Source: Dimargaris cristalligena
Taxonomy: Eukaryota
DNA: 35,085 nucleotides
Direction of reading: 5' to 3'
NCBI GenBank assembly: GCA_003614675.1
Contig: ML002383.1
Span: 1-35,085 of the forward strand
Shown: positions 6,057 to 23,032 of the stretch, piece by piece
Position numbering within the stretch: the first letter of the stretch is position 1
Layout: every line of letters begins with the position of its first letter
Translations under genes and position numbers: made by a program
Notes under the pieces: model-generated
What the model was told of the DNA's origin: nothing
Seen by the model: the letters and a program-made list of their open reading frames with translations, nothing else
Databases searched by the model: none

Positions 6057-8603
6057 CTAAACATTAGGAGAATCAGAAGTAGCATCGGGTCCAGGCTCGT
6101 CGTTGGCCGCCCCCGGCTTACAGTTGAACTTGCAGAGCGGGCAATGTGCAGATTTACGAGTTAACCAAGAATCAATGCACGCGCTATGGAAATAATGCCG
6201 GCAGGGGAGCACACGCACTTGGGCACCTACGACGAAATCGTCTAAACATATGGAACAGTCACATAAAAAAAACCCAAACTTTTCCGTAGGGTTAATGGGT
6301 TCCGAATCCGGCATGCAAATGGCTCCGATTTCCGGGGGTAGCAGCAAGGAAGGGGACCGCGGGGAGGGGGAGATCATGGGTAGCGTAGGGCACGACGAAT
6401 GAGCAGAATACTCTTTGAGAGGTACGGCGGGTGCGGCATCATACAAGGCGTCAGGGATGGCAGAGGATTTATATTTAGATAGGCGTGGTCCGTCTAAATA
6501 TTCGCTCCGCTTACCAACTCCCCTATCCATGCTGGTCGTCGAAGGGGGACGATGTTTGGTGGGCAGGTCGGCCGGTTGAAAAGTGGTTGGACTATACACC
6601 TCTTGGGGCGGATCAAGGCAAGTGGGCAAGGCACCCATCGATGTGCTGGTTTTCGACACTTCAGTCTGACTGGTGTTCCAACTGGAGGTCTGGCCTGATG
6701 TCGCCAACAACGAGCGAGCCGAGCCGAGCGATGATGGGCGGTAGTTGGGAGTACCTAGACCGACGGAATAGTCTGTGCTAATGTCGCTGGTAGCTCCATC
6801 TAGCAGTGGATGATTACCTAGGCGGGGTCTTGGGAATTCGTCCGGCCCGAGGGTTCGGCGGGACGTGGTCAGCGATGTCGAAAACCGTTTCAGAAGCTGC
6901 TGGTAAGTACCCACCCGCGAAGGATCCCGTTTCTCACCCCCAAACCCTTCCACAGGCGGCGCATCGCTGGAAGTATCCGAGTCATCAGCACCCTCTCCTT
7001 CATCCTTGTAATAGAGGCATTTTTCCCAAAGTTGGGAGGGTGTGTGTTCCCGGCCCAGCAGGGGCTTGGACCCATGTTTGAACATTTTGATGTCGTAGTT
7101 AGTCAGAGTGTAGACCGGGTACAGGGCTAGATATTGCGATGAGAGGGGCTTCTGGCCGCCCCGGTCGGCTACTGTTCCTCCAGATCCGGCCCCGCCTGGC
7201 GGGGGAGAACGGCGATGGGATTGATTAATTCCGATGGCTTGGTAAATCGCATCCTCTAAATTACGGGCGGCGGACTCGGATTCGTCCACCATATACCGGC
7301 GTCGGTACCATGCGTAACCCCCAAGCCAGCGATCAACGTGCCGCTTAAAGTAGCGGATATACACTCGCTTGGCGTGGCCTACGTCGAGGGGATATTCAAA
7401 TATGGATAATGCGAGTTAGTTAACGTAGTCGACGGCTTTTTTTTTAAAAAAAAAATGCTAGTTAAAAAGGGGGCAAGACGTATTACAATCTAAATTAGAA
7501 ATAGCCATGTTTCATATAATCGACCCCAGTTAGTATTCACCATCAAAGCCATAAACTAAGCCGTACTTACCGCTCACAATAAAGGCCACCAAGCCAATCG
7601 CCGCACACCCCAACACCGCCAGCCCCCATAGTCGACTCCCTGGTTGAACCCTCGACACACCCATCACCATAAACACCTTAATCACCGGTTCACGTCGGGA
7701 GCGATAAGTGCCAGGGGCTATCATCTGATGAGTTACCTCCGAATAATGGTCTATACCCATATTGGCGTTATGCACCCGATTCACCAATTCCCGGGCCGTT
7801 TCGGTCCCGATTGCCACTGCGGGAATGTGCGGCTGAATGGCGGCCAATTGGGCGTACTCTTCGGTTTCAGGACCCAGTTCACTCATGACCCATCCGGTGT
7901 CTTCGGTGATGTTGACATTATTATGGGGCTCGTGGTACGTAATGATGCCCACCGTTCGATGGGGTAGCTGGTTGGTGAGCGTCGCGAAGAAGGTGCAGTT
8001 ATGGTCATAGGGAATGATGGCAATCTTGGGCTGATTGATGATGGCGTCTAAGTTACTATCCTGGAGGTAGTGGTTAGTTGTGCCGCACGTAGACTCGTGG
8101 ATATACAACATACCCTATAACGGACCGCACGAGTCATTATTAGTAATACACAATATATAGCAGGGTAGGAAAAATATGACAAGGCAAGGGGGTAAGGAGA
8201 TGACTAAATCGAGTAGATTAAATCCAAAGCTTATATTGGGTTTCCGGCAGCCCAGAGCTTCGAATTCGCTCGGTCCCCTAATTCCGCCCCAAAATAAAAC
8301 TGTTGGGGCGTATACGAGGTGAGCAATGAGCCGACTGTTGGTTGTGAATACGCGCATTGAATGGAATGAATCGCAATATCCTACCTCAACAGTATGATCG
8401 TTGCCTAGTTGTGGGGTTGTCGGAATACCGATAACGCTAGGGGCTTCTAAAGGGGAAAAGTCGGTCTTGAATTGCCAAATACCGTTGACCACCCGGACGA
8501 GCCGTTGACTGAGATTTATTTCAAAGTCATCCGAGCGGACAAATGCCAGCTGGCTCACTAGGACCAAGTAGAGAGTGAAGAGGGACAAAAATCCCGACCT
8601 CAT
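6057..8603 (-). CDS. PA-TM-RING-H2 E3 ubiquitin ligase (Goliath/RNF13/RMR-like), 3 exons: 8603-8385, 8114-7571, 7378-6057; ~694 aa
   Basis: Signal peptide MRSGFLSLFTLYLVLVSQLAFVRS; PA-like lumenal segment (KIAIIPYDHNCTF...HIPAVAIGTETARELV); TM helix LWGLAVLGCAAIGLVAFIVSG; C-terminal RING-H2 CSICLDDF...LPCRHYFHSACIDSWL...CPLCK. Introns 8384-8115 (GTAGGA..TAG, phase 0) and 7570-7379 (GTAAGT..ACTAAC..TAG, phase 1) join three track ORFs in frame. Confidence 0.88.
7437..7455. repeat. T9A10 self-complementary homopolymer junction in intron 2 of the RING gene
   Basis: Directly visible as tttttttttaaaaaaaaaa followed by tgct. Confidence 0.9.
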
Positions 8604-11161
8604 GTTGGTTAGAAGGTCCGAAGTTAGCCTAGGATGGTATCGGGCGAGGATTGGTTTTGCCGGGGGGAGGAGTAATAAAGTATAATATAGTTTCAGCAGT
8701 ATAACAGCACGGCCTAGCCGATAACCTGATAGTCAAATGGTCTAGGCGCAGGATAGCTGGTGTGGTCAGAGTGATTATATCGGAAATAGCTGTAGTAGAT
8801 ATAGAGCAATTGGGCGAAACAATAAATACCCGAAAAAACGCCACCGAATTAACCTTCTCAATATCCAATCATTGACAAAATGGTTTGAGGCTCCGTGTTT
8901 AGAAAATAGCCGAAAAAATCCGATGATAAAACCACAACCACGCTCAGCAATGTAGTTGGATAGAAGGGTACGCGTTTTGGATAGACAGTTCAATGGATAG
9001 TAAAAAATGGAGTAGTAATATGTTGAATAGTAGAGAAGAAAAGAGGGGAAGCCAAACTGTGCCGGAAAGCGAGAGATACTGATCATGTAGAAATGGCCAA
9101 CCCTGGGATGCAACCCAGCTGGTTTTCTTAAGCCGGCAACCTTCGCTCAACCAGGGGCACCATTCCCGCCTTGCCTACATGTAAGCCAATACAGTGCTGG
9201 GAACCCCTTGATGTGACCCGTAACAGGCTCTGGCACGGCAACTCGGTCGGTGCCTGTGGCCCGGCGGCACAATTGACCAGCATTGGCGGTAGTTGGAGAA
9301 GGTTTCGTACGGGGGTGATGCCGAGCCAAATATGGGGTGTATTCATTATGAGTAATATAAGTATTCGATATGGAGATAAGGAGGCGTGGTGGTGCGACTG
9401 AAAGGTATGGAATGAATCCATGCGAGGTTGACTATACTGACTTACTCAATTCAGTACCGACGTGTCCCCTCTCCAGAGAACGAGGGGGGGAGAGAGACGG
9501 AGGGAAAGTGACTTGGCTATGGTTATTGTAGAGCCACATGACTTAGCAGATATACTAAAAATGACTGGTTACCAAATGCCTTAATGATACGCCAACTGAG
9601 CAGAACAGTCGAACAAGTGTCTGGTTTAAAACTCCTGTATCAATTTGAGGATTAGTTTAGTCGATATTAATCAATATATTGAATTGATGCAATTATGTAA
9701 AAATCCATTATTGGAGTTCAAAGCCGTGGTTCCCCGCTACATCATGGAAGGAAGCGTGGAAAGATAATCGTGATGGGAATACTGCGAGAGTGACTAAATA
9801 GCTAAGTGGGAGAGAAAGAGAGTGCGTCAGCGGCGCCGTGTACTATAATAAGATAAAATCGACTTATCGGTAGTGCCAACGCCTGAGATCTGACGATTAC
9901 CCAACCACGAGAAGTAGAATAAAACCTATATAAATAATATCCCTGTGGGGAGGGCCGGAGGCCGAGCTACGGAAAATGACATGCAAAAAATAGTCAAATG
10001 GCCAGGAGAGCGAGGGGGTCGATGTTGGGTGCAGCCATGCGTGTGGCTGCTTACTTGCGCTGAGTAAAATCTACTGCAGAGTTCGGCATTGTTTGACCTG
10101 AGATTCCTACTCCCCGTGCGTTCCCGAGCTTAGACTGCCCCCCCCCATCCAAGCTGCCCCTGGAATACCATACACCGTGTGCCGCGGGGCAAGAATCACC
10201 AGTCCACCATCAACCTTGCCAATTATATAGGGAGCGAAACAATACCACCGACTAGGCCAGTCGAGTCTGGTTGGAGTTGCTAAAGTGTAGCTTCTTCGTA
10301 ATAATACACGGCTATTCTTCAATGGCACGGCCTCCTGTACTTATATACATTATTCAATCCCACTGAGCTTGATTACGTTGCATCTCTAATAAGGCTCCCC
10401 AAGATTGACCGCCCATGGCTTATGTGCCTTTAAGTATCGGATTGGATTGGGAGTATACATCAGGGGCAAACACTAGTCTAGACTAATGTGCTTAACTCTT
10501 TGAGTATCTTCGCCCAATGGTACGCCTGAGTTACCGACACCACAGGTTTTAGGCTAGCTTTGGCTTAGGTCCGTGTCCCAACCCAATCTCGTTTTCAGCC
10601 ACTATTTCTCAAGACCCACATACATTATTTTTAAATCCAATGGAACCGATCATTTGTTTTGGTTGATCTGTATGTAGAAACCTCTTCAATATGGGTGTAC
10701 AGTGGGTTTTGCATGTGGGGGTGGGAATCCGATAATTGTATTTGACGATACTATGTTACTACTCCTTATGCGGTGTGCCTATCTAGACTGCACTACCAGT
10801 TTAGCACCATTCCATCCCCCATTACTAAGAGCGCGGCCTATAAGAAAATAGGCCGCTTCGAATAGATTTTGGAGTAAAATTACTCATTAGCTTCTATTAA
10901 TTGGCGTTGGATAGATGAATGATCAAATATATCAACTATTACCAGACCAATAACTCAGACCAACATACTACCGATTTGGGTAACTTACAGAGTAAAATAG
11001 TAGATCACGGTAGTCGAAAAAATGTGCAATATAGCCAAAATCGACTACTATAGGTGTTGAGGTCAGGACAGGATAGTACCTAATTGACCTGATTTAAACA
11101 ATATGTGCATTCTAGATGGGCATGAATAGGTCTTAAAGGATTCCCTTATATGCCTTGCCTG

Positions 11162-11181
11162 TTTTTTTTTTAAAAAAAAAA
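11162..11181. repeat. T10A10 perfect palindrome, intergenic
   Basis: Directly visible, and also followed by tgct like the copy at 7437. Confidence 0.9.
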
Positions 11182-12443
11182 TGCTGGATCCCTGCATCCA
11201 ATCCCATTTTATATATTCATATTAGAAATCTCACCCGACTGCTGATCCTACAGTGAATATTAAACAAATCAGATATATAGGATACATAAAAAACGACTGC
11301 CCTACTCTGAAGGTATGGCTATATAATATCTGCATTGCGGACTAGAGCGTAACACTGCGTATATATTTTAGTGATTAACTGCTGCTAAATAATTATAATA
11401 TAGGTATTTCACACTTTGTGTGCCAGTTTTGCTATTGGTGCAAATACCAGCCAGGGATTCTACCTTATTAGCTAAATAGTGCAATGGTTTAAGGCTATAT
11501 TTCAAACTAAGAGAGAGTAAGATGTCATCATGGTTGATTGTGATTATGGCCTAGCGCAGACCACCCCATTCGACAGTCGTTGTATGCATTGGCAATTGTT
11601 AGAATAGGCAGAAGTGCCAGGAAAGCTTAGTCAGGCATAACGAGTAGGCGGTAGGATGGGGTAAAGAGGTATTTGATAATTGGGAGTGTTCGATATGTAG
11701 TATCGTCGAACGGCCTATGGTCTGGTTCAGGGGCTCGACTATAAGGCGAGCTAGTGGACAGTACTATGTAATCGATGGTTGTTGAGAATTTGGATGCCGA
11801 CGACCTACTTACCCTGGGATATTCCGAAAAATTTAATTAGTATACTTCATATTTAGGTAACATCTGTACTGTCTAATAGCGATTCATTATCCTGTTCTAA
11901 GGGAGTGTGCGCTAAGCCGGATCAAAATCGATTATATTAGATCACATAGTGCAATTCAAATAAAACAAGATTTGCTTTGCGCCCCTCATTTTAAAGAGTT
12001 TTTTTATATAAAAAAATAGTTGACTGTGCTCATTTAAATAATTTACTAAAACTACTTTATAATATAAAATCTTGACTGTAATATTCGTTTATTAATCCCC
12101 AATTTTCGAAAAAAAAATATATGGTGCATTCTCCCGCTACGTATTGTCAGATATTACCAATAAACTCACTAACATGCCCGTTTTTGGCTCTATCTCTTCG
12201 TATCCGGCCAGCGTTTCCATTCCAGCCAGTCGGGAGCCGACCCTACCGGCGCCAGGCAGATATAAATAGGTAGCTACAGACCCCACCAGCTATTCTATAC
12301 TCGCTACCGTCAAGCCGGAACTGGGTGCTCATAATTATTCACAGTTGAACATAAAGGCTGGATAGAAATACATGTATATTGGCGCTAAAAACTAGGCACA
12401 ACAAATGTAAGCCAGCCCCGATAACAAATAGAGACCAGGACAA

Positions 12444-14023
12444 TTACATCTGACGAGGGATAATACGCGGAGGTGGAAAACCGGTTCGGAATTTAATCGC
12501 ATGTAGCCGGTCTAAAAGAATATTATTATTCAGCCAAAGAGAATCGTCCACCTCCTGGTCGTTTGCTTCGAGGAGTTTGATAGCGGTTGAGCGACGGACT
12601 CGAATAGCCAGTTTGGGGTTGCCTTGAGGGTCCCTGTGAGGGTACACGAATCCACCAGCAGTTACATCAACTAGGACAAACTGATCCATACTCCTATTCC
12701 TATCATGGCGCATACACTTTGCCTGGGCGATTGTAAAGCCCAGTACATTGGCATAGCCGCAATTAAGATTGACGTGGCTGGCTAATTTGGCATCTTCTTC
12801 AGGGCCGAAGTCGCCATACTCCAAAAGAAACAGAGCTATGGATCTACTAGTGCCAGGCTGGAGAATACCGGTGAACCCGGTGTCCTTATAGAGCTTCAAT
12901 AACTCGGCGATTCGGCCGGTGGTGGCGAGGACGGTACTGACGCTGGCCACAAATTGGATAAGGTGGGTTGTGATGAGATCATTATCCCACCATTGTTGGA
13001 AACTCGAGGGAAATGTCGCGAGGATTGGCTCATCTTTGTACGCCTCTTCCACCTCTTCAACCGATAGATTATTAGTGCACAATGAATCGACCAGTGTAAA
13101 TAGTTTGATAATCTCGGCCGTGGTTAAGTTTGGGAGGAGATATAGCATGGGGAAAAGCACCCGTTTATGCGTGTCACTCAGTCGAGTGTAATCCAGGTAC
13201 GCCCACTGCTCCTCAATAGGCACCAGTTTTATATAGTTGGATATATCACTCGGCTCTACTTTACCGTTGGTATACGCCTCTTTACTCGGATACTCCCACC
13301 ATCCTGGGTAATGACCACCTAATTTCTTCCAGAAGTAGGCCATGATTGCATCCATCGGTTGCATGGGAAATAGCACTCGGAATCGACTCAGGCTGATCTG
13401 ACCACGTTCCAGCACAAGCCCGCTTAGGTATCTAATAAGTTTCTCGCTCTGTAAAAATAGGACAATAAATAGACACCAATGTGTTGAGGCACTTGTAGTG
13501 GTCCATTAGTTAATAATCAAGAAAACGGTGGTGTTATATATCATTGACACACCAAGGCGTTGGCCACCTACCTACAATTAAATGTCGAATTATTACTATA
13601 AGAGAGTCGCTAAGCAAAATAAACAGCTGGGTGCCACTATGGACAGCGAGTATTTAAGAATGGGGCCAGTGCACTTACCTCGATAAAAGCCAGGCTTTCA
13701 GGGTGGTACTTGACAATCTTGTTCAAATTTTGGTTAACCCCGGACATTTGTACCCGGTCTTTATATGGCAAGTAAGTCAGGGTATTCTCGATAAGTTCAG
13801 GGGGGAGGGGCATCAATATAGACATTTTGTTAGGATAATTCTTTACTTCAATGTCGTAGGTTGAAGCACTGTCAACTAGCTTGTCATTGGGTTGGCTATC
13901 CTCCACGCCGTTGAAGACTCCACTCCCAGATTCTTTGCTGTCGTTGACGGGTTGGGGCCGACTGGAAACATGGTGGACCACGGCCAGGCCAAGCAGGGTG
14001 ACGGATAAGAGGTACGGCTTCAT
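12444..14023 (-). CDS. Signal-peptide + F-box protein with unrecognised C-terminal domain; 2 exons: 14023-13679, 13448-12444; ~449 aa
   Basis: ATG at 14023 gives MKPYLLSVTLLGLAVVHHVSS|RP (basic n-region, hydrophobic core, V-x-S cleavage site). Residues ~70-106, LMPLPPELIENTLTYLPYKDRVQMSGVNQNLNKIVKY, fit the F-box consensus LPxEl(l)xxIlsyL.xxDlxxxsxVxkxw. A phase-0 intron at 13678-13449 (GAG|GTAAGT...TTTTACAG|AGC) joins track ORFs 13637..14104 and 12444..13415. Confidence 0.78.
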
Positions 14024-14192
14024 GGTTAGCAGGCGACAATAAGCAAGAGATAGTGGCTGGTAGGGAAGTAGAGGAAGAGCTGGGTAATTATTGACTGATT
14101 GCAAATGTCAGAATATTACTGTAAAAATCAAAGACACCGAAGCCCAGGTGAAGTGAAGTAACGCTAAAATGAGGTGAAGGAAAAGCGGCAAG

Positions 14193-14200
14193 TTTATATA
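14193..14200 (-). promoter_or_regulatory. Candidate TATA box (TATATAAA) ~170 nt upstream of the secreted F-box gene
   Basis: Matches TATAWAWR on the gene's strand. Sequence match only. Confidence 0.35.
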
Positions 14201-15755
14201 TTCGGAATGGTAGCTAAATGGGAACTGCGGGTCGATGAGGGTATGTCTAGTGATGCCTATAGTTGGGTGGTCTATCTGCATCAGCGAGAAAGCACGGGCG
14301 AATTTCATAACCATACCCGAACCAGTGAATATGTATTACACCGGCGGACAAGTAGCACAATCATATTACTTGCAACAAAGGGAAGGGGTGAAAGAATTTC
14401 AAATGTAACAGGCACTCCCTATCCATGCCACTGAGTTGATTGTACAGTTTTCCCTATTTTTAGATTCATCTGCCGAAAGCAGGTGCCGTCGAACAGGTAA
14501 TGTTGGGATCCAACTGCTCGGCAGCCATGTAGCAATCTGCCGTATTCGGACATATACCTATGTTGCTCATTCGACTAAGTCGCCGATATGGCGGAGGTCC
14601 CGTTCCTCTGGGAATGGTAATTAAACGAAGGCCTCGGGCCACGTACCCGCATTTATAAATTAAAAGGGGATTCGAGTGAAATGGAGATGCCAGTCGGATT
14701 AGGGTGGGACAGTTAGGCAATGTGTTGGCGATGTACGGCCCTCAGCAGAAACACATGAACCTGCTTAGCCGGTTATTTTTTTCTCGAATCAATGGGAATG
14801 TTAAACAAAGAATTTATTTATTATCTTTTGGTGAAACTAGACCTTGTTCTTTCGTTTGAATCCCCTGTTTTCCGTAGTGCCATGAGAACATCAGCTATCA
14901 GCCTTCATTATCCGGTTATCCATTCACCTGGCGATTCCATTAAGAACCTGGTGATTATTTACGATTTCGACCTTTACAACTGATTTCTACTGATATGACG
15001 AATTGTTTGAGAATATTTACACGCCTTTCGGGAGGTTGCTGCCCGAATAATGATTTTGGTTATTTGATAACGACCATGTGTTATGACGGTTTAATGATGG
15101 CATTTTTGAAATGAATAATGGTATATCTAATATTTAAAACAATTTCTACACGACCTTAATTCGGGGAGCCCTCTTCCAACTAGGAAAACGATAATAAAAT
15201 TGCTCATAACTCCTTTTCTTTACCGAAACAATCATTTTAATAAAATCTTTATATCAAAAACATCATATTTTTCTATATACTTTAACACTCGACCATCTCT
15301 ATTAACAATGTTTCGCCCGCACCCAAATTCCTCCAGGCCTAGCATTACATCTTCTACCGGACTGGAGACGACCCCCGGCCATGCCCCTACACTCTGCACC
15401 GGAGCAAGAGATGCCCAGCCGCATTCCGCAACCCAGCGGCAGATTGGTGGATTGGCAAATCCCGACTCAAGTACAATTCCACCTGGCAGGATAGATAATA
15501 CTCAGGGTAGTTAAGAACAATACATAGTCCATTTTCTCCGTTACTGCTGGACAGATATCCAGCACCATCCCTCCCAAACCCATACACTCTTTGTGGCTCT
15601 CTTGACAGTTCAAATACGGCTCAGCGGGGCTTCTGTATAATGTGGCCCATACTATCTCCAGCCGATGTCATTAAATGAGTCTGGCCATTTCATCTTCCAT
15701 ATTATGTATGAGTTCACTACAGCCAATTACTCCTGGTCATATGTCATAACAAGCG

Positions 15756-16926
15756 ACTTGTAAGGGGTACTTATGGTATAGGGGGGGGGGGCTAAATTAG
15801 TGCATCTCATTTTCCCTAAAGATAGGATACTGGGACCCACCCAACACTATCAAACCTCCACTATACTGACATGGCACATCCAAACTGCCATCATATTATG
15901 GCCTTTTAAAATAATTAATGGGCATCACAGGTAGAGGAGTGGTGATGACTGGTCACCATTTTAGCCCAAGGAGGGTAATGGAAAGGTGTATATTAAGGGG
16001 CTGACCATATACTATAAGACCAGACTATTAATAAACTTAGATGGAATATATCCTGAGAGCAGCAATATCTCCAGGGAGAGAATTAGAGTAATATAGTCAT
16101 AGGAAGCATATTCTAGTGAAACTACATCAAGAGGGAAAGGCCAAAGGGAAATAGTACCATCAGTTTTCGGTTAATACATCATGTTATTATTTGGATGGTG
16201 AAAGCAGAGTGTCAATATTTCAAGCAGGAAATATGGGCCATTCCTATAGCACTGGATTCCTTCATACTACTGAAGGGACATTCTACCATGGGCTCAGTAG
16301 TCACTTGTTGCCCAGGTTTGCCACCCTTAGTCTATCAAGAATCCTGAGGATAGGCTTCTAATGGTGGATGGGGCTTAGGCTCAGCTAAGTGGGTCCTAGT
16401 ACTAGGTAAGGGCATAGTACTAACTAATAAAGGTTTACTGGATATAGGTATATATAAGGGTTGTGTAGTAGGCATACTTACTAGTCAGTATAAAGGGAGT
16501 ACACATATATAATGTTTATTGGGATAAACTAAGGGGTCAGAATAAGCTAAGGAACCAAACTGATCCCAATGGGGGCTGGTTATATATATATGGGGGATGA
16601 CTCCAAAGGGAGGTCCCCAGGGAAAGGTACTACTAAGACTAAATAGTATAATAAATAAGCTGGCTGGATGGCTGTGAGGACTTGGAAGACTCTGTGGGGA
16701 ACTGGAAGAGTTATTAAATCAGCACTTAAGTGATTAGTATAAAGGGCCAGAGTCCAGAAAGGGAATAGTTATATAATATAGGATGATCCTATAGTACTAG
16801 GGGTGACTATAGGAAGGTTAATATAGCACTATAAGGCCTAATAAGGGTGGATAATTGTTATATCCAGATTAAGTTGGATTAGGGGGGCCAATAAACTTCA
16901 ACTAAGCTGTATACAATTCTAAATTC
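15756..16926. other. CpG-depleted, TpA-enriched island; probable relic of a mutationally inactivated repeat, TE or duplicated gene
   Basis: Manual scan finds one CpG (16168) in ~1170 nt despite plenty of G and C. It is dense in TAG/TAA/TATA, has no track ORF, and has a G11 run at 15781-15791. The ancestral element is not identifiable. Confidence 0.6.
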
Positions 16927-17194
16927 CGGATGCTATATGTATGGGATAATGTGTGTTATTGTATATTTTTTTTTCAGTACTACCTGTCCCACCAAACGGA
17001 GTTTGCAAAATCTAGCCAGATTGAAGCTCTTCCATGTGCACATTCAAGTACTGAGATTATATATCCAATAAAACAAAACGAATTTTTCACTTGCTATTGA
17101 TATAACTGTGCGTGATAGAATAAGCCGACCTGCAGGCTAGAGTTGATGTCGATTTTTAAAAACAATGGAAAGTTTCCGAGTGGTATTATGGGGC

Positions 17195-20100
17195 TTAGGA
17201 AAGATTCGTAGCCTCGAGGCTTTGAATCTCCCAGCCCACAGGGGTCGAGTCGCCCAACTTCTCCCCAATAATCACACTACTGGTCTTACTGGCGCTGGGT
17301 ACCAAGTATTGCTTGGCCACCCTCTGGACATCCCTGCTGGTGAGACTTAGAAAATGATCGCGGCGTCTACATGGATTGGCAGGGTACAAAATGGCAATTG
17401 TAAAATTTCGGAAAGTTAAGCCAAATAGAATATGAAGGGACCCATTAAGTTACCGATTGGGCCAATAATTGGAGTAGATTATGCACATAAAAGTCGACTG
17501 CAAGTATGAGACCGAAAATCATATATGCCGAGTAACCATTGTGTGGCAAACTGGCACTTACTGTTGGCGCAGTTCGTCGGTAATGCCATAGGTGAATAGC
17601 GACATTCCCTCTTCGAAAACAGACAGAGGGGAATCGATACCAGAGAAAAGGGACAATTTGGCCTCCGTCATTTCCTAGATTGATGGCATAGCGTAAAATT
17701 TCAATAAATAAGGAATACTTAGGGCCAGCGGAAAGATTCCTATATAAAGAGTTATTGTATTCCCTATACGCCAGTCCATATATGGCCCCATGCAAGGGAC
17801 ATGTTAGACAGCTGTCATGAATGAACAATAGTATCGAATATATTGAACTTACCCGGTCCGTAAACTCCCGCTGTTCAGCCCATTCACAGGCCCGACGGAA
17901 CGTTTCTACCGACTTAAATGGGTTAGGATCGCGGTAGGAGAAGAAGGAGAAGAGACCATTTTGGCTACCTAGGCCAGCCCCACCACCGTAGGCGCCATTC
18001 TTCTCGCGGATTTCTCGGTGCAGGAAATGAGTGGTCATCAATTTCGACAGAAGCTGGCATAGTATATCCCAGAGATGCATTTCAAACAACCAAATATAAG
18101 GTGAATTAAGTATTTAGGGTACAAGAAAAAACAATCCAGTATACGGGGAGTGGTCCAGTATTTCTATTGGATGGTATTTAGATCAAGTCGTAAGCGACCC
18201 ATTATGCCCGTTTCATTAGGTTATTTGGTGTGCCATTGGCTAGATGCTTACCTGGAGAGCCGGACTGTCGGGGTGGCTAAATGGCACCGTGTAGAATGAC
18301 TGGGCACTAAAGTTTGAGGCGAAAGGCATTGGGAAGTAGCGCTGGGAGTAAGATGGGGTAAAGGATGAAGTCCCGCCATTATCAGAATTTAATCCACCTG
18401 CTGAGGCCGATTGGTGAGCCATAAAGGCCTCGAGCGCAGTTTGGTTGGCCTTCTCGCTCGATGGGCTGGCAGTAATGGCCACCCGCATTTGGGTCTTGTC
18501 AAGGAAAAGGTCCCTCAATTGCTAAGACGACAATGTGCATACAGGGGATCCCCAAAAGAAAAGTAATATACAGGATTAATTTCATAAATGAAGTAGATCC
18601 TAGCAACCCTAGTTTTACGAATGTCGAATCGCCCAATCAGGTAACAGGTGGGGGAGGTACTCACAACCCCCCCCACCTCTTTCAGTATATAATTCAATTA
18701 CTACTAAGCTAACGGCCCAATTCCAATGATATTTATATATAGGCTTACCTCAAGACGCTGACTGACTTCCGTCAAATCGGACTTGGCCGTAAGTCGATTC
18801 AAGAACTGCAATTGATCGAACCCATTGTAGGTTTCATTGAGCTGGGACGTAGGCAACAGCGTTGATGCAGCCAACATCCGTGCAAAACTATGCCCGGATT
18901 CAGCAATACTATTCCATAGCCCCGAAGCCTGGCCTACAATTAAAGTTTGCAGTCGATCCACCTTATGAAAATCGGTTTGATCGGTAATTTCCCGGATCAG
19001 GTCGTACATGCGCGGTAAGTTGGCGTCTAGGCAGTGACCGCCGACCGAAAAGCCCAGTTCGTAGTTGTTGGTAGGATCCCGGAGACTAGGGCTCAGATGG
19101 TAGTTGAAGGAAACGCCGCCGGTGTACATCCGGATATCCTGGGTTAGTTCGGCCATGGTGCGTCGGGTGGTCCCGCAAGTGGTGAGGGCACTGCAGAGGA
19201 GGGGCACGAAACTTTGCCAGTCGGCGGGAAGGTCGGTCGCGGGGTGGGGTAAAGTGGCGATCGTCTTGAGATACGAAATACCGTTGGTGGGGGCCAAGTT
19301 CCATTGCACGGGGAACTGTTTCGGAGTGATTTGGGTGTGTTTTAAGTTTTCCGTCGACGACGTGTTTTGAGTAGGAATATCGGCCAGGGTGAGGGTAGGC
19401 AAACAGCCCAGGTCTTGCTCGGCGTCTTGGGCAGCCAGGAGCGTTTCGCCGCGTTTCTGGATATTGGCTTCCTGGGCGGGGGTCAAAGACGCCACCACGG
19501 CGGCCAGCCGTTCGCTCTCCCCGCGGTTCCAACTCGCTTGGAAGTCTGCGTCCGGCTCCATCGTGTACACCAATTTCCGGGGATTCTCCAGCAGATGTTT
19601 CGTCACCAAAGACTGGAAAAACTGGCCGTCCTGTAATTCGTTCCGTAGACGAGCGACGCGATTATCAATTTCCATCAAATCAATAGGGTTCGAGCCGTGG
19701 AACCAGCCGGTGGATATGCTCTGCATTAATGACATGCCGAAATCCGCCGTGCGGTGCTTATGCCCCATTTCAATCTGGTGGATAAGGGCCTCAATCCGGG
19801 GGGTGGAGAATCCCTCCTGGGCCACCTTGTCGAGAACCTGCGTAATACGCTCCTCCAAAGGACCGGCGGCATCCGCGGCCCGGACTCCTTGGAGACCCAC
19901 CGAAAAGGATGACTGGTAGGTATAGGGATTGAACCCCGTATTCGCGGAGTATTCGGCACCCATGTTGGTATCGATGAGGGCCTGATAGAGGGGGGCGTCA
20001 GCACCCGAAAGGAGTAGCTTGGAGAGGAAGCCCATGGCAAAGCAGGGGAAAATCTCGGTGGTGGGGTGGGTGAGGAAGCTGACGGACTGTTTCACCTGGC

Positions 20101-21136
20101 GATCAGCGGGAGTGGCCGCGTCTACCGGGCCGGTTTCGGTGACCCGGGTGGCGGGACCAGCGGCGGATAGCTGGCTCAAGAGAGGGACAGTGGGGGTGTC
20201 CGCCCGTTCGTAAGAGTCGATCTTGGCATTGATGGCCTCAAGCTGGGGACCCAGAGGCAGATTGCCGTAGGAGAAGAAGCGGGCATTAGAAGGGTGGTAA
20301 TGGCGACGGTGGAAGTTCACCAACCCTTCGTAGGTCAATTCGGGAATGTGGGTGGGATCGCCACCACTCACATAGCTGTAGGTACAGCCGGGGTATAGGG
20401 CCTGTTGACTACGGGTGGCGAATAGACTTTCCGTATCCGAGAAGGCGCCCTTCATCTCGTTGTACACGACCCCTTTAAACGTCCACGGGGAAGTAGGATC
20501 CCGGGCATTTTCCCGCTCGATACGCCAACCCTCCTGGTAGAAGTCCAAGTCTCGCAACAGCGGGCGAAACACGGCATCCAGGTACACGTCGCGTAAATTA
20601 GCGTAATCCTGGCCATTTTGGGTCGCAAACGGATACTGCGTGTAATCGTGGGCCGTCCAGGCATTCATAAACGTCGACATGGAACGATTCAACATCTTAA
20701 AGAACGGATCGCGTACGGGATAGCGTTCGGAACCACAGAGCGCCGTGTGTTCCAGAATATGGGAGACTCCGGAGCTGTCTTTGGGGGCCGTATTGAACCC
20801 CACGCTAAACACGTTGTTGGCGTCGTCGCGGGCTACGTGCAGGTACTGTGCACCCGTTCGGAGGTGTTCGAGGCGGACGGCGGTGAGGGAGATTTCGGGA
20901 ACTTCCCGGATCTCGTCCACGCGGAACCCATGCAGCACATGGCCGGGGGTGAATTCGGAACCGGGGTGCAGGGGCTTCCCGCTGGCGGTGGCCAGAGAAC
21001 GGACGGTAGAGGTGAGAGGGTAACGTAGGGTCGGTTGGGCCCGGAAGAGCGTGGCGGTCGGAGCACGCTGCCAGAGGCGGTTCGCCTGGCCTCCTCCGCG
21101 GCTAGACCGGGTGGCCCAGAAACTCAATTGTTGCAT
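17195..21136 (-). CDS. CYM1: Mitochondrial presequence protease (pitrilysin family M16C, Cym1/PreP/PITRM1); 5 exons: 21136-18749, 18521-18252, 18053-17853, 17674-17562, 17366-17195; ~1047 aa
   Basis: Inverted zinc motif HILEH (GVSHILEHTALCGS), RDPFFKMLNRSMSTFMNA, KGVVYNEMKG, SGGDP and C-terminal LHREIREKNGAYGGGA...SYRDPN. The R/S-rich, acid-free N-terminus resembles a mitochondrial presequence. All four introns start GTAAG and end YAG with consistent phases (0,0,0,2). Confidence 0.95.
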
Positions 21137-23032
21137 AACGGAGGCTTGATTAGGGTGGAGTGCGGGATATGGAACGAGGCAAATGGGGTAAGGAAGGGAA
21201 TGAGTAGTATTATAGCAGGAAGAAACTGGGATTAGGTGGGGAGGCCTGGAAACAAATTAGCGTAAGACAGGCCTAGAAACGTAAATCGAACAGACGCTCC
21301 CAATCGACTACGCAAAAGACCTGCTGGATATTCGAATGCCTAAGAGCCCATTTTAGAACTACGAGGCACGTTCCTCCGAGTGGGAAGTGCTGCGCAAATG
21401 CTGTCCCCCAATAAAATGGTCTGATTGAAGTAGGGCTTGTATGGAGTTTGAGGGGTTAAGTCAGTTTTCGTATCCCCCATTACGTACCACGCCAAATCAC
21501 GGCTCAATTGAAAGATAATATGGGAGTAGTTCAGCAAGGTTGTATAACGAAAAATCCATTTGATGAGGCAAGTACTACTGGTTGAAAATAAACATCCCAC
21601 CGATTTTCCCATACACATATCAGTTAAACTCTTATACAGCCAAGCTGAACTTCACCCATATATATTCGATAGTAGAAATAGCCAAGGACACTATTACCAG
21701 AGCGAGACCCTGTCTAACCGACGCTTCCCGTATGTTGGAGACACAGATAATCAATTCTACCCCTTTGGAATGTTATATTGTGGTGTTTCTATTTTAGTAT
21801 ACTTAGGAACCCTTCCACCAGAAAGATATCTCATTTATTGAAAACTCATACTTAAAGGCCGAAATGTAAGCCATTTGATTCGCATCCTATAGGAACTATA
21901 TATTTCGTGACTAACTGGACAATATAGGCATTAACACCCAAATATTCAACCATTTTTTAGGGCTATTTAAGGGAGGGCTGTGATCCGAGCCATACCCTGC
22001 CCAAACTATTTTTGGTTTTGGAAAAGGTGAAGAATATCATCGAAGGCCGGTCCTCACCTTTTTCTACCCAGATGGGTACTCTGGTGGCCTGGGCCTCTTT
22101 CTAACATTCGGTATTCAGTATTCATGATTGCTATTAGGATGGCTTATTAGTTATAGCAGGCTGGGGCGTATCCCCAAACCGCCAGCATCAGCAGTCTTCA
22201 GTATTCCATTTATCCTTCTAGTTAGCTATAGTTATTATTTACAGTCGCTCATTGGGTATTCTAGCACCGTAGCAGCACCTGTAGGTCGCCATGTTTATAT
22301 TCATTTCTACTAACCAGGTTTTATATAAATACCTACTGAGTATTCTCTCAATAAAGGCAAACAGTGTTACACCATTCAGTCTTTTATGTTAGTTTGCCGA
22401 CCCCCGGTGTTATCATGGCCGCGCCTTCCTTTGGCCCAAGCCCATGGATTGTGCCCCGTCCACCGCATACGAGAAGGATCCCTGAGTGATTCCCGGTTGC
22501 TTAGTTGTCACTGTATCATGTCCAGATAAGAATCATCCCCGCCGAGTGCAAATTTCCCTCAATATATATGTCTACCACCAAGCTATCACTGTCCCAGCCG
22601 ATATTGATATGGTTATCAGGTCCTATTATATTGTGGCATTAAGTTCGGCCACAACACTACCCATACATTCACACGTGTATATATACCCACCATTCGAACG
22701 TTAAACAGTCATAACCTGGAAAACCATTGCGTTTTTTTTTAATTCAATGTTAAAATCGACTTACTCAAGGGCTGGTGTTATATGTGGTGTCGGCCTCAGC
22801 TGATTGCCGAGAATCGATTGAAACAATATAGTTAACAATAATAAAATGTAATCTACCAATATACCAGATTGGAAGAGCCCTGACTGTTTGACGCGGACAA
22901 CTGACGGGCACATCGGGTTGCTCTACACTTGCTACAGATCATGCGGCAGGCTAATTTATCTTTTTGGGAAAATTTGGGGCAGGTGTCCCTTGGTGACAAA
23001 TCAGCTGGCCGATTTACTCACAACGTTTAAGT

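Follow-up and report, generated by a model that had tools for sequence, protein, structure and literature searches.

What could an F-box, the element by which a protein is built into an SCF ubiquitin ligase, be doing behind a predicted secretion signal? This question is raised by a gene on the minus strand of a contig of the mycoparasitic fungus Dimargaris cristalligena (assembly GCA_003614675.1, contig ML002383.1). The window, i.e. the whole stretch of DNA that was analyzed, comprises 35,085 nt, of which the gene occupies positions 14023 to 12444. In a first, sequence-only reading, the gene had been proposed to encode an exported effector that redirects a host SCF ligase. Here, the gene model, the family to which the gene belongs and each part of the predicted protein are considered in turn, together with the explanations that compete with this proposal.

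Gene model and genomic setting

The predicted gene consists of two exons. Exon 1 (14023-13679, minus strand) contains 115 codons and is directly followed by the donor GTAAGT at 13678, while exon 2 (13448-12444, minus strand) contains 334 codons (13448-12447) and the stop codon (12446-12444). The predicted intron in between (13678-13449, minus strand) is 230 nt long, lies in phase 0 and runs GTAAGT..TTTTTACAG (GT..AG). Its GC content is 40%, and a branch-like CTAAT lies 57 nt ahead of its 3' end. If it were retained, 13 further codons and a stop would follow, giving a product of 128 aa. The same intron is used by two public annotations, and the paralogues are collinear over the junction of exons 1 and 2 as well as upstream of an internal ATG at 13364. 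Contigs from four sequencing runs fall in the region 12300-14300: in three of them a single contig extends over all of it with the intron present, and the fourth yields just a 150-nt contig (these runs are recorded as 'DNA?' and are silent on splicing and expression).

The spliced 449-aa model of the sequence-only reading is identical, letter for letter, to the public D. cristalligena protein P0003. Its architecture was said to be hidden by the open reading frame track; the spliced model is, however, already present in public annotations. UniProt lists the public model of the window itself (P0164, 462 aa) as 'F-box domain-containing protein'; this model equals the 449-aa one with 13 additional N-terminal residues. 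In P0164 an alternative first coding exon of 6 nt (14652-14647, minus strand; ATGCGG, donor GTACGT) is spliced across a 590-nt intron to an acceptor at 14057, and the exon resumes at 14056. This 6-nt exon is not backed by any paralogue, as the other 14 signal-bearing N-termini begin either at a conserved M[KRQT] or at the preceding M. The ATG at 14023 has an A at -3 (Kozak context). A TATA-like element (14195-14200, minus strand), called by its match to the consensus alone, lies 177 nt upstream, and no other ATG occurs between the two.

The gene stands alone in a stretch of lower GC content (about 0.42), without another ORF of at least 130 aa between about 9.2 and 17.4 kb, and is bordered on both sides by housekeeping genes with a GC content of 0.55-0.59. 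A tblastn search with all family members matched this gene only, so that the window holds no further copy, and no repeats or transposons were found in the flanks (9000-17500). Contamination with host DNA was considered and rejected: the neighboring PreP gene is closest to those of other Dimargaritales (65-55% identity), with Cokeromyces at only 48%.

A family restricted to D. cristalligena

The gene is not a singleton but one of 25 related loci, a family that is restricted to D. cristalligena. When 1.84 billion representatives were searched exhaustively with HMMER, 25 proteins were returned at E <= 1e-3, all of them named D. cristalligena. The searched library includes Tieghemiomyces, Dispira, D. 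verticillata, D. xerosporica and the host Cokeromyces, as is shown by the matches of the neighboring PreP. When a profile was used to look for relatives beyond this species, the matches listed likewise comprised only D. cristalligena (three proteins).

The sequence-only reading had suggested looking for paralogues that combine a signal peptide with an F-box, and such paralogues were found. The same signal-like N-terminus is present in 15 of the 25 loci, in the model of at least one assembly. The other 10 models begin within the F-box or the C-terminal domain, which is the pattern expected if the 5' exon was missed. For further comparison, 12 N-terminally complete paralogues were aligned that had been picked for retaining the P-x-E motif of the F-box, and all 12 combine this motif with the signal-like N-terminus. 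The signal-bearing loci outside this alignment, which do not have the motif, are P0019, P0020 and P0163.

Conservation differs strongly between the regions of the protein. Among nine full-length paralogues (36 pairs), the mean pairwise identity is highest in the signal peptide (42%), followed by the C-terminal domain (25%) and the F-box (23%), and it is lowest in the linker (residues 26-66, 15%). Since the signal region is the most conserved, the first 22 codons are taken to be coding and constrained, rather than 5'-UTR.

Linker and F-box

The polar and acidic linker described in the sequence-only reading (codons 22-72; 13808-13960, minus strand) is indeed seen. It opens with an X-P-X-P motif (RPQP) and is predicted to be disordered, the AF2 pLDDT of residues 27-68 being below 50. 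It is followed by the F-box (codons 73-107, LPPELIENTLTYLPYKDRVQMSGVNQNLNKIV; 13703-13807, minus strand), which matches Pfam PF00646 over profile positions 4-38 of 43. The score is 27.3 bits for exon 1 and 25.0 bits for the 449-aa protein (gathering cut-off: 20.5), in agreement with the F-box first placed at nt ~13816-13706. Of the two Pfam profiles considered, this is the one that recognizes the box; with PF12937 (F-box-like), the score of 12.3 bits falls under the cut-off of 24.3.

The residues L73-P74-P75-E76 are in register with the F-box of yeast Cdc4 (phmmer E only 0.8), and the profile of the family's F-box region is in register with the F-box of Skp2, at an E of only about 1. In the 12 aligned paralogues, a set chosen for keeping the motif, P74 and E76 (the P and E of L-P-x-E) are invariant. 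The canonical tryptophan of the third helix (H3), present as W in the Cdc4 alignment, is L100 here. The full-length AF2 model has three helices in this region, at residues 75-84, 87-94 and 98-106, with a pLDDT of about 82. When exon 1 was modeled on its own (pLDDT 59.9), two of the three helices were merged, and fold searches with this model yielded nothing above noise (best Foldseek E 6.8, best VIA Z 3.7), no F-box protein being prominent.

It could be argued that the box is a relic, i.e. that the family is secreted and acts outside any SCF (extracellularly, at the host interface or by simple binding inside the host), the box helices having become a structural cap. Of the 12 members that bear an F-box, the present one alone passes the PF00646 cut-off; five others reach 12-18 bits at the same place and the remaining ones have no Pfam F-box match. 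The box is wholly or mostly lost in P0019, P0020, P0163 and P0037, the leucine at the H3 position points in the same direction, and in the AF2 model helix 108-128, which belongs to the C-terminal domain, follows the box without a break. Genuine F-boxes, however, usually score weakly in Pfam, and the two motif residues have remained invariant although the region around them is only 23% identical. Members without a box are moreover described for SSGP-71, the F-box family of the Hessian fly. Altogether, a relic is regarded as unlikely, although it is the alternative that survives best.

The C-terminal domain

Residues of about 108 to 436 form a confidently predicted domain, which is mostly alpha-helical with a small beta-sheet (AF2). 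Several motifs encoded by exon 2 are conserved in the family: W.Y.DYT.L, S..AVLA.TGQF.KL, LLLEYG, LGF..A, TA.GFVY..RD..G.P.LAIRV.RS and a C-terminal PPPR..Q tail. It was stated earlier that no WD40, LRR, Kelch or ankyrin pattern could be recognized here, and the C-terminal 334 aa are indeed without any Pfam match, those four included; the search of the domain against NCBIfam was equally empty. When the PDB was searched by sequence, the single protein found no match and the family profile a best E of 0.12 (a designed repeat protein).

Comparisons by structure fit this picture of an unrecognized domain. Foldseek gave no PDB match at E <= 1e-3 (best 0.31), and the best ESM Atlas score (0.79) lies below the level that shuffled proteins attain one third of the time. 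The wide VIA search reached a best Z of 6.2; seven chains had Z >= 5, all of them generic alpha-solenoids or designed repeats, and Z >= 8 was not reached by any. As the fold was judged within the full-length AF2 model, a 'new fold' is not claimed. Ankyrin-like repeats, suspected from A..G....LL, found no support: there is no Pfam Ank match, and a large duplication in two parts is not apparent, as the profile of residues 116-280 is unmatched by that of residues 281-449 (hhalign E 0.66).

The signal-like N-terminus

Codons 1-21 (MKPYLLSVTLLGLAVVHHVSS; 13961-14023, minus strand) are predicted to form a cleavable signal peptide, on the basis of hydropathy and the -3/-1 rule, with the cut before R22-P23. 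K2 provides a basic n-region and is followed by 13 uncharged residues (4-16). The mean Kyte-Doolittle hydropathy is 2.62 for residues 5-16, as compared with 1.31 for the best 19-residue stretch. The cleavage rule is satisfied by V19 at -3 and S21 at -1, ahead of R22. By these criteria, the features of the clean signal peptide that had been proposed are present (MKPYLLSVTLLGLAVVHHVSS followed by RP). The 13 extra residues of P0164 would stretch the n-region to 16 residues.

As a screen, a crude rule of our own was applied, with the ORFs of the window and mitochondrial PreP homologues as controls. It was passed by 14 of the 15 paralogue N-termini, by 2 of the 66 ORFs in the window that start with ATG and reach at least 60 aa (one being this gene) and by none of the 120 PreP homologues. 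Neither an ER-retention motif nor a further hydrophobic segment nor a GPI-like tail is present in the 449-aa protein. Sequons occur at N27, N222, N242 and N366. A Kex2/furin site at RVRR was considered and discarded, the dibasic pair not being kept in the paralogues (RVCR, RVSH, RVHR).

A segment that is left uncleaved would lead to another function: it could anchor an endogenous SCF adaptor in the ER or Golgi of the parasite, with the F-box and the C-terminal domain facing the parasite's own cytosol. The F-box would then find its normal partner without any uptake by a host, and the hydrophobic core is followed by a basic, proline-rich R-P-Q-P, which we take to resemble the hinge behind microsomal P450 anchors. 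However, the uncharged core of just 13 residues is short for a span and, because the 19-residue hydropathy is only 1.31, a transmembrane segment is unlikely. Furthermore, 14 of the 15 signal-bearing paralogues carry a K or R ahead of the core; this favors an orientation with the N-terminus inside and the C-terminus translocated. All 15 have kept small residues at -1 (S, G or C) and -3, as would be seen at a cleavage site. Such a membrane tether is therefore judged improbable.

That the signal peptide is an error of the gene model, with M67 or M71 as the true start of an ordinary cytosolic F-box protein, has very little probability: M67 also has an A at -3, F-boxes often lie near the N-terminus and the 5' end differs between the two public models, but the ATG at 14023 is the first one past the TATA-like element and in good context, the first 22 codons are the best conserved of the family with M1, L10, L13 and P23 invariant in all 12 aligned paralogues, residue 1 of the paralogues aligns to nt 14023 (tblastn), and the models of two independently annotated assemblies start there in paralogue after paralogue.

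A possible mechanism at the haustorium

That both an export signal and a Skp1-type motif have been kept is understandable only if the protein arrives in a cytosol different from that of its source. Dimargaritales are described as penetrating Mucoromycota and Ascomycota hosts by means of an appressorium and a haustorium (PMC9866270). The host is likely to be another fungus (Mucorales or some Ascomycota) and not a plant or an animal. As to the exported effector that was proposed at the outset, the architecture stands, backed by the 15 paralogues that share the signal and by the haustorial parasitism, while the action on the host and its SCF is what we infer. The reading preferred here, with a probability a little under one half (about 0.48), is that the gene encodes a secreted F-box effector, aimed at the SCF ligases of the host and belonging to a group of about 25 genes that is confined to D. 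cristalligena.

In this effector mechanism, the signal peptide of 21 residues would direct the protein to the secretory pathway and be cut off before R22, as is suggested by the sequence features and their conservation in the family. The protein would subsequently be released, probably at the haustorium, in keeping with the lack of a retention motif, a second hydrophobic segment or a GPI-like tail. It might then enter the host hypha by some route, which is the speculative step. Inside the host, the F-box is predicted from its sequence match to bind Skp1 and would thus be built into the SCF ubiquitin ligase of the host. Finally, the C-terminal domain, which is helical and lineage-specific, may select the host proteins for ubiquitination in analogy to other F-box proteins, and the divergence of the paralogues would mirror different or changing host targets.

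The weak F-box scores of the other members, the Skp2 match at an E of about 1, the leucine at the H3 position and the longer n-region of P0164 count against the effector reading. Furthermore, we know of no translocation motif for the Dimargaris lineage. In addition, fungal F-box families commonly expand without any link to secretion, an example being the orphan family of 31 members in Choanephora (PMC5238444). A more far-reaching version, in which about 25 diversified F-box proteins are injected from haustoria into host hyphae and each marks a different host protein, via a helical recognition fold not seen before, for degradation by the SCF ligase of that host, is put forward tentatively, as something that may well not hold.

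Comparison with known systems

The closest analogue is the SSGP-71 family of the Hessian fly (Mayetiola destructor), which is similar in its way of working at most; the Dimargaris proteins are not members of it. SSGP-71 is likewise described as a family of a eukaryotic parasite in which an F-box follows a classical signal peptide and precedes a variable target-binding domain. It also went through a large lineage-specific expansion in which some members have no F-box, and its members bind a Skp1-like protein of the host (PMC10317074, PMC4617103). The differences are as clear. Skp binding was shown for SSGP-71 and is predicted from sequence for the Dimargaris protein. The C-terminus of SSGP-71 is described to contain about 13 LRRs, in contrast to the non-repeat helical domain without LRR match found here. 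SSGP-71 acts from insect to plant and is reported to count 426 genes, whereas the Dimargaris case would be one of fungus to fungus with about 25. Homology to SSGP-71 was not detected, all 25 family matches of the HMMER search being D. cristalligena.

RipG/GALA of Ralstonia, AnkB/LegU1 of Legionella and VirF of Agrobacterium are likewise described as F-box proteins that are exported, become part of SCF ligases of the host and contribute a substrate-binding domain of the pathogen's choice (PMC4617103). Unlike the Dimargaris protein with its predicted ER signal peptide, they are reported to reach the host through type III or IV secretion and to contain LRR or ankyrin substrate domains. They are bacterial mimics of eukaryotic proteins, acquired or evolved as such, whereas here a eukaryotic F-box is found in a eukaryote.

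Among fungi, NLS_30765 from Rhizophagus clarus is a protein of the predicted secretome that carries a signal peptide as well as an F-box-like Pfam domain, for which its authors proposed an interference with SCF signaling of the host (PMC4746824). Compared by its description only, it differs in being a single computational candidate from a plant symbiont, with no family described in that report. The canonical fungal F-box proteins share the position of the F-box, N-terminal to the substrate domain: Cdc4 aligns in register and Dia2 is a weak profile match (E 0.46). In contrast to the Dimargaris family, which occurs in one species in the databases searched, they are conserved across fungi, have no signal peptide and contain WD40 or LRR substrate domains.

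In the literature, nothing was found that joins Dimargaris with F-boxes, and searches for secreted F-box proteins or F-box effectors returned bacterial effectors or reviews among the matches listed. According to a comparative study of Ascomycota, it is unclear what part F-box proteins play in eukaryotic pathogenicity.

Implications for mycoparasitism

To our knowledge, almost nothing is known about the molecular control of fungal hosts by early-diverging mycoparasites. A family with an export signal and an F-box provides a concrete and testable hypothesis of SCF hijacking in the host. Skp1 is highly conserved among fungi and, as this includes the host protein, binding tests can easily be set up. 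The C-terminal domain, which has no recognizable relative, would add a new fold to the substrate receptors, and if specific proteins of Mucorales are selected by it, the paralogues would flag host processes that are important to parasitism. Should the effector reading prove true, the strategy of SSGP-71, RipG and AnkB would be extended to the interaction between fungi, with at least one more independent origin. In its more far-reaching version, it would be the first hijack of a ubiquitin ligase by one fungus against another, and the family would be the first among the effectors of Zoopagomycota to be experimentally tractable.

Gene model and translation start

The F-box gene lies on the minus strand at 12444..14023. 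Exon 1 (14023-13679) begins with the ATG at 14023 and encodes 115 aa, while exon 2 (13448 to the stop codon at 12446-12444) encodes 334 aa. The 230-nt phase 0 intron between them (13678-13449, 40% GC) runs from GTAAGT to TTTTTACAG and carries a CTAAT branch-like site 57 nt before its 3' end. If this intron were retained, the frame would be closed after 13 further codons. The joined product of 449 aa is a 100% match to P0003, a public protein and H4R33 model ('hypothetical protein H4R33_000909 [Dimargaris cristalligena]'). Furthermore, paralogous proteins align collinearly with the stretch of exon 2 located 5' of its first ATG (13364); this stretch is therefore coding and requires an upstream exon. 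On both counts, the spliced two-exon gene proposed in the sequence-only reading is right as a model, and it agrees with two public annotations.

The public model of the contig's own assembly, P0164 (462 aa), equals P0003 with 13 additional N-terminal residues. Here, a first coding exon of only 6 nt (14652-14647, minus strand, ATGCGG, donor GTACGT) is followed by a 590-nt intron with its 3' end at 14057, which places MRPLSLAYCRLLT ahead of the conserved start (14057-14652, minus strand). The start at 14023 is favored over that of P0164, since the other 14 signal-bearing paralogues all lack such an extension, a TATA-like element (14200-14195, minus strand) falls within the putative intron, and the 14023 ATG has an A at -3 with no ATG between it and the TATA-like element. 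Even in P0164, the hydrophobic core would fall inside the first 30 residues, with a longer basic n-region ahead of it.

F-box and C-terminal domain

The F-box suspected from the sequence was recovered by Pfam: PF00646 matches residues 73-107 above its gathering score of 20.5, scoring 27.3 bits (E 3.1e-6) for exon 1 by itself and 25.0 bits for the full 449 aa. A phmmer comparison to PDB sequences puts the stretch in register with the F-box of yeast Cdc4 (LP-E, YL, D, GV-QN-NKI), at an E of only 0.8. In the third F-box helix, the tryptophan is replaced by a leucine. P0003 is the only family member that passes the Pfam cut-off; P0028, P0008, P0039, P0031 and P0025 give 12-18 bits for an F-box or F-box-like domain at the homologous place. 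UniProt applies its own label 'F-box domain-containing protein' to eight family entries. In P0019, P0020, P0037 and P0163 the box is mostly or wholly lost. A secreted family in which the F-box persists as a structural relic is an unlikely alternative, though one to be kept in mind.

The remainder of the protein (residues 116-449) has no match in Pfam, NCBIfam or PDB sequences, as had been anticipated for a region without a recognizable domain. The 449-aa protein was modeled by AlphaFold2 from the family alignment of 25 sequences (mean pLDDT 76.5, pTM 0.72). In this model the linker (residues 27-68, pLDDT <50) is predicted to be disordered and the F-box is built from three short helices (75-84, 87-94 and 98-106, pLDDT ~82). 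Residues 108 to ~436 are predicted as a single confident domain, mostly alpha-helical with ~20 helices and a small sheet (197-201, 383-387 and 393-400). Foldseek of the full-length model against the PDB gave no match at E <= 1e-3 (best E 0.31, TM <= 0.17). VIA-align against 48,161 representatives reached a best Z of 6.2, with Z >= 5 in seven chains, all of them generic solenoids or designed repeats, and Z >= 8 in none; such scores are within the noise for a helical protein. The predicted C-terminal domain, searched within the full-length model, is thus one for which no relative is recognizable, and no new fold is claimed. The model of exon 1 alone was poor (pLDDT 59.9), and the fold searches run with it were uninformative.

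The subfamilies differ at their very ends. One closes with a conserved proline-rich tail, R.G[FL]PPPR..xQ[EQ]-COOH in the family alignment (residues 437-449 of P0003, pLDDT <50, predicted disordered), and another with ..[IV]PDWL...

Predicted N-terminal signal

The N-terminus, MKPYLLSVTLLGLAVVHHVSS followed by RPQP, carries a basic second residue with a run of 13 uncharged ones behind it. Hydropathy averages 2.62 across residues 5-16 but only 1.31 across the best 19-residue stretch, and V and S stand at -3 and -1 ahead of R22. The features of a signal peptide noted earlier are thus present, and the pattern points to a signal peptide that is cleaved, not to a membrane anchor. An uncleaved anchor would turn the protein into an endogenous SCF adaptor held on the parasite's own membranes. 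This is rather improbable given the core of 13 residues, the basic residue ahead of it and the conservation of the -3/-1 residues.

By a crude signal-peptide rule of our own (not SignalP), two of the window's 66 ATG ORFs (>= 60 aa) pass, one being the F-box gene, as do 14 of 15 paralogue N-termini and none of 120 homologues of the mitochondrial presequence protease PreP. No further hydrophobic segment of the protein exceeds the span threshold (best internal 19-residue hydropathy 1.49), and its C-terminus shows neither an HDEL-type ending nor a hydrophobic tail; its default fate would therefore be secretion. Cleavage is predicted between residues 21 and 22, upon entry into the secretory pathway.

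Directly behind the predicted cleavage site (residues 22-25 of P0003), the paralogues carry an X-P-X-P motif: RPQP, HPHP, RPYP, RPKP or HPKP. Ste13/DPP-IV-type aminopeptidases trim X-Pro dipeptides off secreted precursors. Equally, the motif could be constrained by the cleavage region or serve in uptake.

A family restricted to D. cristalligena

When the 449-aa query was searched exhaustively with HMMER against 1.84 billion representatives (E <= 1e-3), 25 proteins were returned; E is <= 1e-10 for 18 of them and <= 1e-30 for seven. Their sources name D. cristalligena for every one of the 25, and as the representatives are <50% identical to one another, they correspond to separate loci. HMMER found no match in other Dimargaritales or in Mucorales, though their proteomes are in the searched collection, and a profile search of a word-indexed database added no further members among the matches listed.

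When the longer of both assemblies' models is taken per locus, 15 of the 25 share the same signal-like N-terminus, with the consensus M-[KR]-x-Y-x-V-x-[VI]-T-L-L-x-L-A-L-x-H-S-x-x-[GS] and, behind the predicted cut, [RH]-P-x-P. The other 10 models begin within the F-box or the C-terminal domain, several of them at a methionine that is internal in P0003 (P0007: MQPMDAIMA), as would be expected of a missed 5' exon. As to the paralogues with signal peptide and F-box that had been sought: among 12 N-terminally complete paralogues, picked for keeping the P-x-E motif, all 12 combine it with the signal-like N-terminus, and M1, L10, L13, P23, P74 and E76 are invariant. Over nine full-length paralogues (36 pairs), mean pairwise identity is 42% in the signal region, 15% in the linker, 23% in the F-box region and 25% in the C-terminal domain. 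Judged from these alignments, constraint on the protein is greatest over the first 22 codons, a strong argument against an untranslated leader. A mis-called start (true start at M67 or M71) is disfavored by this pattern and very improbable. The 25-locus, species-restricted family conserves its signal.

In DNA runs that contain this gene, other contigs show short matches (85-91% identity) only to 12588-12623, 13149-13209 and 13338-13374. It is here that the best-conserved motifs of the family are encoded: NPKLAIRVRRST, FPMQPMDAIMAY and a portion of the W.Y.DYT region. These matches are DNA-level evidence of paralogues elsewhere in the same genome. For the paralogue P0022 / P0034 / P0035 the assemblies differ: one has a 528-aa model with a different, signal-bearing 126-aa protein fused N-terminally, and the other splits it into two genes, each of which has its own signal-like N-terminus. 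The split models point to a second small gene for a predicted secreted protein directly upstream of this paralogue.

Genomic setting

The PreP gene of the window (18707-21256) is 100% identical to that of D. cristalligena, compared to 65% for Tieghemiomyces, 60% for Dispira simplex, 57% for D. verticillata, 55% for D. xerosporica and 48% for the usual host, Cokeromyces recurvatus. The contig is therefore the parasite's, and contamination by the host is ruled out. The window covers all 35,085 nt of this contig, which belongs to one of two public assemblies. The other genes of the window are likewise housekeeping genes: dynein heavy chain, DUF1295, a RING finger protein, M3 peptidase, an F-BAR/RhoGAP protein and a proteasome alpha subunit.

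The F-box gene occupies a compositionally distinct, gene-poor pocket. GC is 0.42 in its flanks (~3 kb on each side: 9200-12443 and 14024-17400), 0.48 in its exons and 0.55-0.59 in the neighbors, and third-position GC is 0.54 compared to 0.67 in PreP. Between about 9.2 and 17.4 kb there are no repeats and no other ORFs of at least 130 aa. The only other ORF of the window to pass the crude signal rule is 8117-8603 (minus strand), which starts with MRSGFLSLFTLYLVLVSQLAFVRS ahead of DD. The ORFs of its gene (7530-9146) have no Pfam match; from its sequence, this gene may encode a second secreted or membrane protein adjoining the low-GC stretch.

In run X6, labeled with a different organism (organism B), one 150-nt contig of depth 2 is identical to 14078-14227 (promoter/5' region), with no other part of the 2-kb stretch covered. 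It may represent trace carry-over or co-culture material.

Comparison to known systems and proposed role

In design, the nearest analogue is the Hessian-fly SSGP-71 effector family, for which 426 genes are reported (PMC10317074, PMC4617103). The D. cristalligena proteins lack LRRs and detectable homology and are thus not members of it; they differ in the substrate domain and in having a fungal host, and are best described as an independent variant of an SSGP-71-like system, known here from sequence. Bacterial RipG/GALA, AnkB/LegU1 and VirF are described as sharing this strategy, with type III or IV secretion as the export route. The one computational candidate found in the fungal literature is NLS_30765 of Rhizophagus clarus, which has an F-box-like domain and is predicted to be secreted (PMC4746824). 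The role of F-box proteins in eukaryotic pathogenicity has been called unclear (PMC8146833). Lineage-specific F-box expansions in zygomycetes, e.g. a 31-member Choanephora family, are presented without mention of secretion in the relevant sections of PMC5238444. The main text of a zygomycete secretome paper (PMC9391592) contains neither F-box, ubiquitin nor Dimargaris, and no literature naming both Dimargaris and F-box was found.

Dimargaritales are described as parasitizing Mucoromycota, for example Cokeromyces, as well as Ascomycota, for example Chaetomium, by means of an appressorium and a biotrophic haustorium (PMC9866270). The family proteins, exported via their signal, would be delivered into another cell, namely the host hypha around the haustorium, where the C-terminal domain would select substrates. 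F-box partners exist only in the cytosol or nucleus. As the family has retained its export signal alongside the P-x-E core, delivery to another cell is the simplest explanation, and a secreted F-box family acting in host hyphae is given a probability of just under one half. Of the effector proposed in the sequence-only reading, the architecture and its conservation are established, and its function is as yet a proposal. To find an export signal joined to an F-box throughout a family of a haustorial mycoparasite is unusual, and the functional steps are all inferred.
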